DNA from: Minisyncoccota bacterium
Lineage (GTDB): Bacteria > Patescibacteriota > Minisyncoccia > UBA6257 > GWB1-50-10
Direction of reading: 5' to 3'
Assembly (NCBI GenBank): GCA_020059915.1
Contig: JAGVBB010000002.1
Span: 1 to 60,128, forward strand
DNA: 60,128 bases
The number at the start of each line of letters is the position of its first letter. The first letter of the stretch is position 1. A model generated the notes under the pieces. That model ran no database searches. It was given only the letters and a program-made list of their open reading frames with translations, and had not been told where the DNA came from. The translations under genes were made by a program, and so were the position numbers. Shown here one piece after another: positions 1 to 49,906 of this stretch.

Positions 1-123
1 CTAGGATTCGAACCAAGGGCGCATAAAAACAAGGAGTATTTATAATACGACTATGTTTTTATTGCGTTTCGACCGAAGGGAGATAAGAATCCTAGTGGGC
101 CTGCCTGCGGTAGGCAGGGGCAC
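1..123 (+). repeat. tRNA-derived unit: antisense T-arm, hairpin spacer, tRNA-3'-end-like copy interrupted by a palindrome
   Basis: ctaggattc (1-9) and gaatcctag (87-95) are inverted repeats; inner stem gcataaaaaca/tgtttttattgc; palindrome at 100-118. Confidence 0.6.
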
Positions 124-130
124 AGACACC

Positions 131-156
131 AAATCCCGACATTTCTGTCGGGATTT
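131..156. terminator. Terminator-like hairpin
   Basis: aaatcccgaca-tttc-tgtcgggattt. Confidence 0.6.
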
Positions 157-194
157 GAATTTTTAATTATCAATTTTTAATTTTTAAATAAAGA

Positions 195-268
195 GGATTC
201 GAACCGCGGGCTGCAGGCTTCGAAGAGAAGCCGAAGATCTCGAACTCAGCAGAGTGAGAGGCGAATCC
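195..268 (-). repeat. 74-nt structured element, copy A
   Basis: Reverse complement aligns ungapped to 49367-49440 at 61/74 (hand count). Confidence 0.85.
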
Positions 269-296
269 TAATTTTTAATAACTATCATAAATAAAA

Positions 297-316
297 ATCC
301 CCCAACATTGGGGGAT
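297..316 (-). terminator. Terminator hairpin after the 84-aa ORF
   Basis: atccccca-acat-tgggggat with A/T-rich flanks. Confidence 0.6.
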
Positions 317-570
317 TATTTTTTATCCAATTCTTTTTTGGAATCATCACAAGAACATAAGCGTCCCTCAAGAATATATTTTTGAGCAAATGCTTCCGCT
401 CCTCCATTATCAACATAGTGAAGCGTTGCCTCTTCTCGGGACGGCTCACGCCCAAGTTTTTGTGACGCATAATACATATTATCGCAACCAAGTATCTCTT
501 TCTTTTCGAGTTCCCAATATTCCGCAAGCGACAATATAAGCTTCCCTGTTTCTGGATCTACTCTCGCCAT
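316..570 (-). CDS. Hypothetical protein, 84 aa
   Basis: AGGAG 6-7 nt before ATG, terminator at the stop, protein-like composition. Confidence 0.75.
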   Translation of the reverse strand: MARVDPETGKLILSLAEYWELEKKEILGCDNMYYASQKLGREPSREEATLHYVDNGGAEAFAQKYILEGRLCSCDDSKKELDKK

Positions 571-39401: not shown

Positions 39402-40577
39402 CTATTTACCAAAAATATTAGAAAGACGCTGTAATGCTTCCACTATATCTTCCTTTGTTGTCTGATAACCAAAACTTGCTCGCACACCATTTATTTTTTT
39501 ATCATCCCCTCCATACATTGCGGATAATACATGTGATGCGCTGTGTGCACGTGCAGAACAGGCAGATCCAGAAGAAAAAGCAACGCCCAATAGATCTGCT
39601 TGTGTTAAAAATTCTTCTCGATTCATTTCTTGTAAATGAATATTAACAATATGTGGCGCATGTTTGCCGACTCCGTTTATCTTGCTTTCCGGGAAAATTT
39701 TCAAGAATCCTTTTATAAATTCTTTCCGTAGCAACTCAACGCGTTTCAGTTCTTTTTTCCTGTTTTTTTGAGCAACAGAAAATGCTTCTGTACAACCCAC
39801 AATATTTTGAACATTCTCAGTCCCCGATCGCAAACCAAATTCCTGACCACCACCAGTAATGATGGGGGTTAGTGGGTGGGGGTTAGGGGGTAGAGTAGAA
39901 ACAAGAACACCAACACCTTTTGGTCCACCACATTTATGTCCGGAAACAGTAAGCACATCAACACCAAGTTCTTTCAGTGAACAATCAAAATATGAGAATG
40001 CTTGGACGGCATCGGTGTGAAAGATAGGGGTTAGGGGGTGGGGGTTAGGGGGTAGAGATTTTTTAAAGTCAGAAACGATACAGGAGATTTCTTTAATTGG
40101 TTGAACAGATCCAATTTCGTTGTTCACATACATAATGGAAACAAGAGCAGTATTTTTTGTTAAAGATTTTTTTAGTTCATCCAATAAAATAATTCCATCT
40201 TCATCAACGGGGAGAAGCACAAGGTCTATTTTCTTTTCACGTTCAAGTGTGCGAGCAGTTTCAAGAACAGATTCGTGTTCAATACTCGAAATAACAACTC
40301 GTGGCACACCATTTCCCCTCCAGTTAGCAACAACCCCTCTCAAGGCAAGATTGTTTGCCTCGGTTGCAGAGCCACAGAACAACACACCGCGAAAATCAAC
40401 ATCAAATATCTTTGCTATTCGTTCGCGCGCACCATCAATGGCTCCCATGGCCTCCTGGCCAAAAGAATGAAGCGATCCTGGATTTCCAAACTTTATATTA
40501 AAGTATGGGATCATCGCTTTGATAACCTCTTTTCTTACTGGCGTTGTCGCCGCATAATCAAGATAAATTCGCCTCAT
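39402..40577 (-). CDS. Cysteine desulfurase (NifS/IscS class V)
   Basis: YLDYAATTP, GNPGSLH, HTDAVQA, SGHKCGGPKG, RSGTEN, SSGSACS; ATG at 40577. Confidence 0.94.
   Translation of the reverse strand: MRRIYLDYAATTPVRKEVIKAMIPYFNIKFGNPGSLHSFGQEAMGAIDGARERIAKIFDVDFRGVLFCGSATEANNLALRGVVANWRGNGVPRVVISSIEHESVLETARTLEREKKIDLVLLPVDEDGIILLDELKKSLTKNTALVSIMYVNNEIGSVQPIKEISCIVSDFKKSLPPNPHPLTPIFHTDAVQAFSYFDCSLKELGVDVLTVSGHKCGGPKGVGVLVSTLPPNPHPLTPIITGGGQEFGLRSGTENVQNIVGCTEAFSVAQKNRKKELKRVELLRKEFIKGFLKIFPESKINGVGKHAPHIVNIHLQEMNREEFLTQADLLGVAFSSGSACSARAHSASHVLSAMYGGDDKKINGVRASFGYQTTKEDIVEALQRLSNIFGK
39861..39895. repeat. In-frame heptamer insert, copy 2 (encodes LPPNPHPLTP)
   Basis: 33/35 identical to 40023-40057. 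Confidence 0.9.
40023..40057. repeat. In-frame heptamer insert, copy 1 (encodes LPPNPHPLTP)
   Basis: Coding strand ctacccc ctaaccc ccacccc ctaaccc. Confidence 0.9.
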
Positions 40578-42153: not shown

Positions 42154-43215
42154 TTATTGTGTTACTGTTGTTGATTCTTGCGACTCTTTTTCAGGAGATG
42201 TTGTATCCACTGAAGAAACTGGTTTGTTTATATTTGGAATTTTTTGTAGTTCCATAAGTGCTGAGAGAACTCCTGCGTGTGCTGTTTGAACTTTTTCTTG
42301 AACAGCTTTTAAATCTACATGAAGTGCATCTCGTGCTACTTTCAAATCATCTGCAACTTTTGCCTCAGTAGAAACTGAAACTGTATATACTTTCCCCGCT
42401 TGAGTAGCAACTGCAGATCGTGCAGTAGTAATTGCATCTTTTGCAACTTGCACAGCAGCTAACACTGCGGTTACATCGCTTCCATTTGCCGTTGCTTTAT
42501 CTGCTCTTGTTGATATATTTGTTAACGCATTTTCAAGTGCATTGATATTATTTGTAAAACGATTTACGGCATTTTCGCTTACTTTATTCAGATTTTCTCC
42601 GACTCGTTCAGTGATCTGTTTTTTCTGTTCGTCCTTGAATTGCTCTATTTTTGTTTTCAATTCCTCCTTCTTCGCTTCTATAACTTTCTGTGCTTCTGCG
42701 CGACGCTCTTCAATTGTATTTTTCAATTCCTCCTTCTTCGCTTCTACTTCTTTCTGAAATTCTGCGCGTCGTTCTTGTAATAATTTAACCGCCTCCTGCT
42801 GCCCCTCAGAAACTGCTTTTAATATATCTTCGCGCTCCGCCTTAAATGCTTCTCTTGCTGCTTCCGTTTCTTTTTTTATCATTCCCTGAATTGCTCCCGC
42901 CTGAGCTTTTAGCGTCTCTCTGGTTGTCTCAATTTGCTGCTTCATCACCTCCCTCCCTTCTTGAATTTGGTTTTTTAACGCAGAATCTTCACCAAAATTC
43001 CGCGTCCTTTGTTCTTCACGATTCATCTGTAATTGATCTTCCTCATCTGTAGCGTCCTCCTGATTTTGCTTCATAATCTCAATCGGTTTCACGGGAAGAA
43101 CTGAGCGTATTGGCTCAAAAACCTGCACTGGCCTTGCAATATTTGTTGGCGTTTGCGCAAAAGCAATTGCACCACCAACAAAGAATAATAACGATCCAAT
43201 AATTATTTTTTTCAT
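42154..43215 (-). CDS. Secreted coiled-coil protein with a 22-aa tandem repeat
   Basis: Signal peptide (AIAFAQ); ERRAE..EAKKEELK..IE twice. Confidence 0.85.
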   Translation of the reverse strand: MKKIIIGSLLFFVGGAIAFAQTPTNIARPVQVFEPIRSVLPVKPIEIMKQNQEDATDEEDQLQMNREEQRTRNFGEDSALKNQIQEGREVMKQQIETTRETLKAQAGAIQGMIKKETEAAREAFKAEREDILKAVSEGQQEAVKLLQERRAEFQKEVEAKKEELKNTIEERRAEAQKVIEAKKEELKTKIEQFKDEQKKQITERVGENLNKVSENAVNRFTNNINALENALTNISTRADKATANGSDVTAVLAAVQVAKDAITTARSAVATQAGKVYTVSVSTEAKVADDLKVARDALHVDLKAVQEKVQTAHAGVLSALMELQKIPNINKPVSSVDTTSPEKESQESTTVTQ

Positions 43216-44295: not shown

Positions 44296-44643
44296 ACTCC
44301 GACAAAAGTCGGAGTTTTTTTATGGGCGGCTATTTATTAGATTGGGAATTCTTTCAACTAACCACTCGCCGTCGCTCGTGGTTGTTTCAAGCCTGGGCTC
44401 GCTGTGCTCGTTACTACTCGCACAACGCTCCGCCCTTCAATTCCTAATCAGAGACAATAAATTGTCTCTGATTCTATCCGCCAAAAAACTCCGACAAAAG
44501 TCGGAGTTTCTTTTTGGGCGGCTAGAGGGAATTTTTCTCCCCCAACCTCATTATCATTCGGCTTCCTCCGAAACCTGCCGCACCCGCTCGGACCAATGGC
44601 GCGGGTGTCGGCTTCAATTTCTTTTTAATTGCCCAACTACGTT
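44296..44643 (-). repeat. Two tRNA-His 3'-end duplication units
   Basis: 19-bp copy at 44515-44533; degenerate copy at 44324-44350; identical 20-nt hairpins at 44296 and 44488. Confidence 0.85.
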
Positions 44644-44644
44644 G

Positions 44645-44716
44645 GGCGGCTAGAGGGAATTGAACCCTCGATTACGGGACCACAACCCGTCGTTTTACCA
44701 CTAAACTATAGCCGCC
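44645..44716 (-). tRNA. tRNA-His(GTG) with encoded G-1
   Basis: Cloverleaf GCGGCTA/TAGCCGC; anticodon stem ACGGG/CCCGT; GGTTCAATTCC. Confidence 0.95.
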
Positions 44717-49253: not shown

Positions 49254-49531
49254 TTTGTCGGCACTTCGCACTGCTGTATTCAGCACCTCCTTCGCCTTCG
49301 CTTTTTGTCGGCACTTCGCACTGCTGTATTCAGCACCTCCTTCGCCTTCGCTCAGTCGGGATGCCGGGAATCGCCTCTCGCTCTACTGAGCTCGAAACCT
49401 ACGACCTCTCTTCGAGGTCTGCGGCCCGCGGTTCGATTCCATTTCAAAAAATAAAAAACGGGGCAAGAAGCTCCGTTTTTTATTTGTCGGTACTTCGCAC
49501 TGCTGTGCTCAGCACCTCCTTCGCCTTTGCT
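49254..49531. repeat. Three 49-bp direct repeats, a 22-bp tRNA-Pro 3'-end copy and the 74-nt element (copy B)
   Basis: Copies at 49254, 49304, 49483; 49352-49373 equals 49531-49552. Confidence 0.9.
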
Positions 49532-49534
49532 CAG

Positions 49535-49605
49535 TCGGGATGCCGGGAATCGAACCCGGCCTACCTGCTCCCAAAGCAGGCGTACTACCGATATACTACA
49601 TCCCG
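49535..49605 (-). tRNA. tRNA-Pro(TGG)
   Basis: CGGGATG/CATCCCG; CCTGC-TTTGGGA-GCAGG. Confidence 0.95.
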
Positions 49606-49668: not shown

Positions 49669-49740
49669 GCCCCCGTAGTTCAACGGATAGAATAGCTCCC
49701 TTCTAAGGAGTAGATTGAGGTTCGATTCCTCGCGGGGGTA
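49669..49740 (+). tRNA. tRNA-Arg(TCT)
   Basis: GCCCCCG/CGGGGGT; GCTCC-CTTCTAA-GGAGT; GGTTCGATTCC. Confidence 0.92.
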
Positions 49741-49789
49741 CTAAATATAAAACACTGTCCTTCGACGGTGTTTTATATTTTTTATTTTT

Positions 49790-49906
49790 GAGGAATTGAA
49801 CCTTTTGCCCCCGTGGAGGAAAGTATTGAAAACCGAGAGGTTTTCAAAGTTAGGGGGTCGGGGGCAAAAATTGTGTTTATGTGAGATTTCCTCGCGGGGG
49901 TACTAA
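49790..49906 (+). repeat. tRNA-Arg antisense-T-arm / spacer / 3'-end duplication unit
   Basis: gaggaattgaacc at 49790; 19-bp copy at 49888-49906 equals 49726-49744. Confidence 0.85.

Follow-up and report, generated by a model that had tools for sequence, protein, structure and literature searches.

A conserved 74-nt structured sequence behind tRNA genes of Patescibacteria as the candidate core of a gene-less insertion element

The DNA analysed here (hereafter the window) is a stretch of 60,128 nt from a Minisyncoccota bacterium, a low-GC chromosome segment that carries FtsZ, FtsA, class II ribonucleotide reductase, ClpB and six tRNAs. The longest inverted repeat within it is a pair of 74-nt sequences with 82% complementarity, the runner-up reaching 40 nt at 70%. 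A first-pass annotation made from the letters alone had singled out this pair, and our comparison agrees with its description: positions 195-268, reverse-complemented, give an ungapped alignment with 49367-49440 in which 13 of the 74 letters differ (61/74 identical), and the inner stems differ exactly as claimed (ggctt/aagcc versus gacct/aggtc, around an identical loop). The two copies, termed A and B, are listed with their surrounding features in Table 1.

Table 1. Features of the window that belong to or accompany the 74-nt element; for the cores, the strand given is the one on which the fold probably forms
Feature	Position	Strand	Basis or remarks
Subfamily-2 divergent member	4..92	+	Tandem, upstream of copy A; ends GGATTCGAACC ... 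GGGAGATAAGAATCC; covariance model 14.8 bits
Terminator-like hairpin with T-run	128..165	+	Between the 4-92 member and copy A
Copy A, 74-nt core	195..268	+	Probable folded strand; covariance model 91.4 bits, alignment, flanks
Copy A, P1	195-201/262-268	+	Alignment/segmentation
Copy A, AACC linker	202-205	+	Alignment/segmentation
Copy A, stub hairpin P4	206-214	+	Alignment/segmentation
Copy A, hairpin P3	216-221/227-232	+	GAAGA loop 222-226; alignment/segmentation
Copy A, long hairpin P5	~237-264	+	Tandem G.A 242-243/256-257; alignment/segmentation
Terminator-like hairpin	294..325		Starts 26 nt past copy A
tRNA-His module 2, tandem	44323..44444	-	GGAATTGAAGG ... GAATTCCC ... TAGCCGCCCA
tRNA-His module 1	44515..44621	-	Inverted T-loop GAAATTGAAGCC, different core, end GGGGGAGAAA, perfect 19-nt copy of tRNA-His 3' end at 44533-44515
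tRNA-His	44644-44715	-	Partner of the two tandem modules
Trailer repeat 'F' (~50 nt), two tandem copies	49254..49352	-	Past the copied tRNA end
Exact 21-nt direct copy CGATTCCCGGCATCCCGACTG	49353..49373	-	Copy B P1 3' strand running on; tRNA-Pro T-loop to 3' end plus 3 nt of trailer
Copy B, 74-nt core	49367..49440	-	Covariance model 100.5 bits, alignment
Copy B, P5	~49398-49371	-	Alignment/segmentation
Copy B, P3	49419-49414/49408-49403	-	Loop 49413-49409; alignment/segmentation
Copy B, P4	49429-49421	-	Alignment/segmentation
Copy B, P1	49440-49434/49373-49367	-	Alignment/segmentation
A/T-flanked hairpin	49441..49482		Terminator-like in both directions; separates tRNA-Pro trailer from copy B
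Third 'F' copy	49483-49533	-	Directly after tRNA-Pro; G.A-flanked P5-like hairpin at 49494-49519
Partner tRNA-Pro(TGG)	49534..49605	-	Copied segment derives from its 3' end, 49552-49532
tRNA-Arg(TCT)	49669-49741	+	Upstream of module 49790..49906
tRNA-Arg(TCT) module	49790..49906	+	Terminator, inverted T-loop GAGGAATTGAACC, ~80-nt different core, GTGAG, tRNA-Arg 3' end copy CCTCGCGGGGGTACTAA at 49890-49906

The surroundings of the two copies differ. Copy A is a 'solo' copy that lacks a tRNA-derived tail and has no partner tRNA in the nearest 130 nt; it carries unusual substitutions at positions that are near-invariant elsewhere in the family. Copy B lies behind tRNA-Pro, and the exact copy of the tRNA-Pro 3' end into which it runs on looks like a target duplication or an att site. 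A related strain from a groundwater metagenome lacks both the 'F' copy at 49486-49533 and one of the tandem 'F' copies. In that strain no 'F' stands between tRNA-Pro and the terminator, and 'F' is therefore the original tRNA-Pro trailer, now placed past the copied end. A trailer start similar to 'F' (CCCGACTGAGCGAAGGCGA) also follows tRNA-Pro at another locus, L008 (family loci carry the prefix L here). Contigs from four DNA runs contained repeat-number variants at copy B, and no element-free form was seen among them.

Comparison with known RNA families, made in two ways, did not recognise the element. ARAGORN called the 6 window tRNAs and neither copy, and with Rfam 15 only the 6 tRNAs passed the gathering thresholds, the remaining matches at E<=10 on both strands being terminator-driven noise far below threshold, with no RF00005 among them. 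A tRNA or any Rfam 15 family (tmRNA, self-cleaving ribozymes, riboswitches and sRNAs) was rejected on these grounds. Comparison by eye with hammerhead, twister and HDV ribozymes, box C/D and H/ACA RNAs, the group I IGS, integron core sites and an origin from TaqI/BstBI cutting likewise gave no fit. The T-arm-like end GGTTCGAWTCC that had been pointed out is indeed present, with a T-stem limited to GG/CC, and it proves to be the T-loop of the neighbouring tRNA, copied in inverted orientation. Full-text literature searches returned no description of such an element, and the family, which belongs to the Patescibacteria/CPR, is apparently undescribed.

A covariance model built from homologues recovers copies B and A at E values of ~1e-21 and ~1e-19, respectively, with all other window sequence scoring at most 15 bits. 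In an alignment of 102 distinct homologues both sides change in 16 of the 22 modelled pairs and 93% of cells are paired, versus 26-45% when the partner column is slid, and none of 500 shuffles reached the observed values; taking the 43- and 102-sequence sets together, the ranges are 93-96% and 26-48%. Hairpins P3 and P5 each contain 5-6 pairs with double changes and show up to 5-6 pair types. The proposal that a single-stranded fold is under selection, rather than a duplicate in decay, is thereby borne out across ~100 homologues. Folding energies are modestly better than those of shuffled sequences on both strands (z -1.9 to -3.2). The closing stem has a different history: the contrast between ggattcg/cgaatcc and ggaatcg/cgattcc is present as described, yet the third compensatory pair that had been read from it is no independent compensation. 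Each strand of this stem consists of T-loop sequence. Position 4 of P1 is A/U or U/A at ratios of 24:19 and 48:44 with hardly any mismatches, and this A/T choice tracks the T-loop variant of the adjacent partner tRNA (TTCGAAT or TTCGATT), so that it was copied from the target.

The strand originally taken to fold was probably the wrong one. G.U wobbles, a tandem G.A motif and a U.G-rich helix all favour its complement. In the first set of sequences 14 G.U wobbles fell on the opposite strand against 2 on the strand chosen before, and among 73 ungapped sequences the count was 32 versus 16 overall and 12 versus 1 in P3, the asymmetry being weaker elsewhere (8 versus 7 in P5, 11 versus 8 in P1). 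A conserved internal loop that reads UC/UC on the strand chosen before corresponds to tandem G.A/A.G on the opposite one in 65 of 71 sequences, with A-U pairs replacing it in L008 and L018. RNAalifold added a helix between alignment columns 43-47 and 66-70, in which 44/69 is U.G in 42 of 43 sequences and 45/68 alternates between U.G, C-G and U-A; this helix is unable to form on the strand chosen earlier and so supports the other. As a truly covarying extension of P5 it was also preferred to a P2 pairing of AACC with GGU. From these signatures it is quite likely that the folded strand is the opposite of the one first proposed, with copy A on the plus and copy B on the minus strand.

Read 5' to 3' on that strand, the model opens with P1, in which GGAWUCG pairs with CGAWUCC, followed by the AACC linker, the P4 stub hairpin GCG-GGC-CGC, a single A, P3 with 6 bp and a GANGA loop, a GWAG linker, and finally the long hairpin P5 with its tandem G.A, which continues into the 3' strand of P1. 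The GANGA loop may be a GNRA-like pentaloop with the variable base extruded. As modelled, the core would form a cloverleaf-like junction of four helices with P5 stacked beside P1, and it would likely act as RNA in the direction of the tRNA; linker lengths in this four-way junction are tRNA-like, and the tertiary signatures of tRNA are absent. About 15 members carry an arm of 55-62 nt with two hairpins inserted in the P4 loop, and this optional arm likewise pairs by U.G on the strand we take to fold. Its motif, CUCCC-GAUUU..AAAUCG-CAGUCC-UUUA-GGG, was seen in the P4 loops of L071, L084, L068, L100, L102, L104, L112, L118 and others, and the same two-hairpin module of 55-62 nt also stands alone after copied tRNA ends, downstream of elements in L014 and L015. 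The module could be a domain that the RNA may have or lack, or else a further mini-element nested in the first.

Where the first-pass annotation had seen two copies, pattern scans and the covariance model together revealed more than 200 loci. Rather than being free-standing, the element is tied to tRNA genes as an insertion that duplicates the tRNA 3' end. In a scan of species-representative genomes ~50 of 60 hits were full-length homologues; a second, independent pattern gave 85 loci, and a third scan, of metagenome contigs for which taxonomy was not available, gave 116. Matches to strict patterns are found in ~60 of 185,579 species genomes. Hosts are Patescibacteria (Saccharibacteria, Paceibacterota/Parcubacteria lineages and Gracilibacteria) or environmental metagenome contigs, some of them from groundwater, the exceptions being a bin that bears the label Gammaproteobacteria (L074) and ~10 matches to coding sequence in other phyla, which we attribute to chance. 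Viral contigs gave 0 hits in each of two pattern scans, and a phage origin was rejected on this basis. Elements are 74-154 nt long and free of ORFs, and several genomes hold 3-7 copies, including single near-complete contigs of 0.75-0.84 Mb. With this distribution the near-consensus family is both sporadic and multi-copy and no universal housekeeping RNA.

Among the loci examined, 94 tRNA genes have a family member no more than 200 nt downstream on the same strand, and the gap between tRNA and element clusters at 49-67 nt. Partners span 25 anticodon types, those for Tyr, Arg, Trp, Glu and Gln being the commonest, and a long A/T-flanked hairpin resembling a bidirectional terminator lies in between. 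The 3' strand of P1 (CGAWTCC...) runs on as a direct copy of the tRNA from C56 of the T-loop to the 3' end. This direct copy is at least 17 nt long in 47 of 79 pairs and 19-21 nt long in ~60% of pairs, ends 0 to +4 nt from the tRNA end in 36 of 79, and occasionally extends over 50-66 nt, through trailer and terminator; the length of the duplication clusters at 19-21 nt within a range of 0 to 66. Approximately 30% of copies, window copy A among them, have no tRNA-derived tail. In several loci (L029, L047 and L058) conservation of the copied tRNA 3' end exceeds that of the adjoining trailer.

The 5' end of the element, GGAWTCGAACC, is the reverse complement of T-loop positions 52-62, and sometimes of a longer segment. 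Owing to this inverted T-loop, the stretch from tRNA G52 to nucleotide 11 of the element forms one quasi-palindrome, 40-98 nt long, whose folding energy can be as low as -78 kcal/mol. In no pair do the direct and the inverted copy both reach full length (>=17 nt; 0 of 79, with ~4 expected by chance), and a full mimic of the acceptor/T-arm minihelix was rejected for that reason.

Filled and empty states of one site can be compared at L108 and L097, which share the same tRNA-Trp. The filled site, L108, is longer by ~114 nt, made up of spacer, inverted T-loop, core and 19 nt present a second time (CGAATCCTTGTGGGCCCGC), and its flank past that second copy is 89% identical to the sequence directly after the tRNA in the empty one. 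The element is an insertion that duplicates 19 nt, with the original trailer now behind the second copy. A second and more distant filled/empty pair is L033/L198, and these two are the only such pairs found. At L047 a pair of copies separated by 1 kb do not differ in their cores, while the P1 A/T is switched to fit tRNA-Trp and tRNA-Tyr, respectively. The near-identical copies at L100 and L102 follow two different tRNA-Arg genes and each carry a 20-nt direct copy of the 3' end of the respective partner. Tandem arrays are also present. The left boundary (spacer or terminator) varies between loci, as it does not in a classical transposon, and the inverted repeat amounts to the 7-11 nt of T-loop that fit the target.

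Divergent members of the family share its ends, GGAWTYGAAC... on one side and ...GAGAG or GTGAG followed by the 3' half of the T-loop and the tRNA end on the other, and differ in their cores. Three of the 6 window tRNAs (His, Pro and Arg-TCT) have such a module behind them; for copy A and the 4-92 member a tRNA partner is not visible within the window. The closing stem of the 4-92 member reaches 1-95, a long AT-rich hairpin replaces P3 (fold z = -5.9), and relatives of it were found at L012:3669-3752, L018:7183-7265 and L037:21-137. Its Trp-like tail, TAGTGGGCC, points to a tRNA-Trp gene shortly before the start of the window. Both modules behind tRNA-His (span 44323-44621) have a ...GAGAAA/GAAAG motif ahead of the copied tRNA end, and the same terminator closes each (repeat D13, 44296-44332 / 44488-44524).

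Other small modules were seen in this connection. A GC-rich hairpin at 98-118 of the window (GGCCTGCCTGCGGTAGGCAGG) recurs beside family members in unrelated CPR genomes (flanks of L039 and L013) and may be another small repeated module. At L017:3478-3720 and at L064, downstream of tRNA-Trp, a module of ~230 nt bears the family ends (CAAGGATTCGAAG ... GGAGAGAATCCTTGTGGGCCCGCA) around an unrelated core; at L064 it is followed by a partial core of the 74-nt type, which shows that arrays can mix subfamilies.

We clustered the ORFs within +/-3.5 kb of ~50 loci. No family occurred in more than 6 loci, and integrase, recombinase, transposase and reverse transcriptase were absent; the top neighbour clusters, named from sequence alone, are presumably ClpB, a Mur ligase, RuvX, a sigma factor and a PilM/FtsA-like protein, all housekeeping functions. 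Lacking a conserved neighbour enzyme, the element would be non-autonomous. Nor was a large element present between the tRNA-end repeats at any locus examined. With respect to transcription, a -10-like hexamer showed no positional enrichment upstream in either orientation, and a terminator hairpin lies directly upstream of the element on the probable folded strand. In groundwater metatranscriptome contigs, a poor data set, the partner tRNA was covered at L080 and L171 and the element was not.

On balance, we favour a reading in which the 74 nt are the conserved centre of a small insertion element that has no genes and settles at tRNA 3' ends in Patescibacteria; the members of this family are probably tiny mobile elements. 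New copies might originate at the universal T-loop sequence, where homologies of 11 nt and 7 nt would allow recombination or a switch of template during replication, and copying at the T-loop would explain why both strands of the closing stem fit the new host tRNA. The element would bring with it a replacement tRNA 3' end and a terminator, by which the tRNA would stay intact and the insertion be tolerated. Its fold may be kept by selection either as the part recognised by the copying machinery or as a small RNA with an activity of its own. As to whether RNA or folded DNA is the acting form, the modelled RNA-type motifs favour RNA; the upstream terminator, the lack of a promoter and the absence of a transcript where the partner tRNA is detectable stand against it.

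The element shares features with each of the closest known systems, yet fails a defining feature of every one. MITEs, Rickettsia palindromic elements and Correia elements are similarly small, gene-less, multi-copy, sporadic, hairpin-forming and duplication-flanked, and are present or absent at orthologous sites; of the usual attributes of a MITE, the element has the lack of an ORF, 3-7 copies per genome and a filled versus an empty tRNA-Trp site. It differs from MITEs in that its duplication is long (19-21 nt) and always runs from T-loop C56 to the tRNA 3' end, in that its 'terminal inverted repeat' is a target-matching T-loop and its left boundary is not conserved, and in that its interior is a covarying multi-helix junction and no simple palindrome. 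With the tRNA insertions of phage and ICE integrases, and with CIMEs, it has in common the tRNA 3' site, a direct repeat from T-loop to tRNA end and a replacement 3' end that saves the tRNA. Of the features expected of tRNA integration, a direct repeat of the tRNA 3' end is found at both junctions (21 nt for window copy B), whereas a nearby integrase and specificity for a single tRNA are not: the element is only ~110-200 bp, has no integrase near it and uses at least 25 tRNA species with a single core family, and it adds a structured core and a further, inverted copy of the T-loop.

Integron attC sites and the folded attP of CTX phage resemble it in a possible folded-strand function, paired conserved ends, a variable branched interior, strand specificity and tandem arrays at one site. 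An attC is defined by R'' RYYYAAC / R' GTTRRRY cores, cassette ORFs and IntI. The ends of the element, GGAWTCGAACC / GAGAGGCGAWTCC, miss the R''/R' cores, and ORFs and integrase are absent, on which grounds an integron attC was rejected; the element moreover differs from the attC/CTX systems in targeting the tRNA T-loop and in its RNA-type motifs, which would favour RNA. Elements of the IS200/IS605 type have subterminal hairpins, no target duplication and TnpA/TnpB, and were dismissed as candidates since here a clear duplication is present. The tRNA-like RNAs (tRNA-derived SINEs, the tmRNA domain, Y-RNA modules and plant mitochondrial t-elements) are matched in size (~74 nt), four-helix cloverleaf, tRNA-like linkers, T-loop sequence and adjacency to tRNA genes, and SINEs are likewise tRNA-sized repeats with target duplication. 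In contrast to these RNAs, the element goes unscored by ARAGORN and the Rfam tRNA/tmRNA models, has neither the D-loop GG/T-loop pair nor a U33 anticodon loop, and uses its T-loop sequence as a closing stem.

Several other readings of the data were weighed. The core could belong to a family of host small-RNA genes whose product, for instance, mimics tRNA, serves as a tRNA decoy or binds protein; such genes would have arisen by tandem duplication of the tRNA 3' region and be useful in trans, the link to tRNA genes then reflecting origin and co-transcription rather than mobility. Strong purifying selection on junction nucleotides and fold, the cloverleaf-like layout with its tRNA-like linker lengths, the housekeeping-gene neighbourhood and the tails of L029, L047 and L058, whose conservation suggests selection, speak for such a gene, and the fact that distant CPR lineages share the core sequence could point to a host-beneficial RNA rather than a selfish element. 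We nevertheless regard this as rather unlikely given the sporadic, multi-copy occurrence, the recent near-identical duplicates behind different tRNAs, the filled/empty polymorphism, the ~30% of copies (copy A included) that are tail-less and the lack of visible expression; stem arms that are never both full length also leave no complete acceptor-stem mimic. Unlikely, too, is that the core is an active, tRNA-shaped mobile element operating at the RNA level, a SINE analogue or a small ribozyme- or intron-like molecule whose T-loop-antisense 5' strand would guide alignment on any tRNA gene or transcript and which would be copied back into DNA, duplicating the tRNA 3' end; we know of no reverse transcriptase link for the element. 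A folded single-stranded DNA recombination site of the attC or CTX attP kind, in which the stem of inverted and direct T-loop copies mimics the duplex tRNA T-loop and a tyrosine recombinase, of Xer type or a trans-acting integrase, inserts small non-coding cassettes at the tRNA site from T-loop to 3' end and so builds tandem arrays, seems to us a little less likely still. It would account for the strand-specific signature with G.T tolerated on one strand, for conserved ends around subfamily-variable cores as in attC terminal structures, for arrays each closing with a tRNA-end copy, for repeats of 19-21 nt like those of tRNA-borne att sites and for the lack of detected RNA. However, no recombinase is linked to it, a crossover at the universal T-loop would yield hybrid tRNAs on moving between tRNA species, the putative GNRA-like pentaloop and junction-side tandem G.A would be typical of RNA, and the integron R''/R' consensus is missing.

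It is very doubtful that the element is a cis-acting accessory of the tRNA gene in processing, termination or insulation, co-transcribed from that gene's promoter and able, by pairing with the 3' end of the tRNA, to control maturation or stop read-through. The fixed orientation and tight spacing behind tRNAs, the potential of the inverted T-loop to base-pair, over the intervening terminator, with the 3' end of the tRNA and the lack of a promoter of its own would suit such a role, but only a minority of tRNAs carry the element and orthologous tRNAs work without it, 'solo' copies such as copy A have no tRNA to serve, and termination needs no elaborate conserved junction. Least probable of all, and already largely refuted, is a leftover arm or att scar of a larger tRNA-integrating element (CIME-like) with an incidental fold, or else a decayed tRNA pseudogene or chance similarity. 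The direct repeats of tRNA 3' ends are the classic signature of integration into tRNA genes, and T-loop-like ends are present; against this reading are the want of any large element between the repeats, the absence of a nearby integrase and a core that is conserved and covaries across distant lineages. The tRNA models reject the element, and chance similarity is excluded by the window repeat comparison and the covariance-model scores.

If confirmed, a non-autonomous element at tRNA 3' ends would constitute an undescribed class of structured elements specific to the Patescibacteria, a huge and poorly understood radiation, as well as a new form of tRNA-gene parasitism in which the universal T-loop serves as both landing pad and closing stem and the tRNA 3' end is restored. 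It would also offer a ready case for the spread of small non-coding modules without linked enzymes, and its interest would be far greater should the core prove to function as RNA or to be a mobile element of an RNA-guided or ribozyme type. On the practical side, look-alike tRNA 3' ends carried by elements may mislead searches for integration sites, and the repeats and palindromes beside tRNA genes (hairpins of 40-98 nt) may break assemblies.

Two further repeats of the window lie in or near minus-strand ORFs: G-rich direct repeats (GGGGTTAGGGGGTGGGGGTTAGGGGGTAGAG) at 39858-39895 / 40020-40057, 162 nt apart, and a 66-nt tandem repeat at 42644-42775. Both appear to be unconnected to the element.
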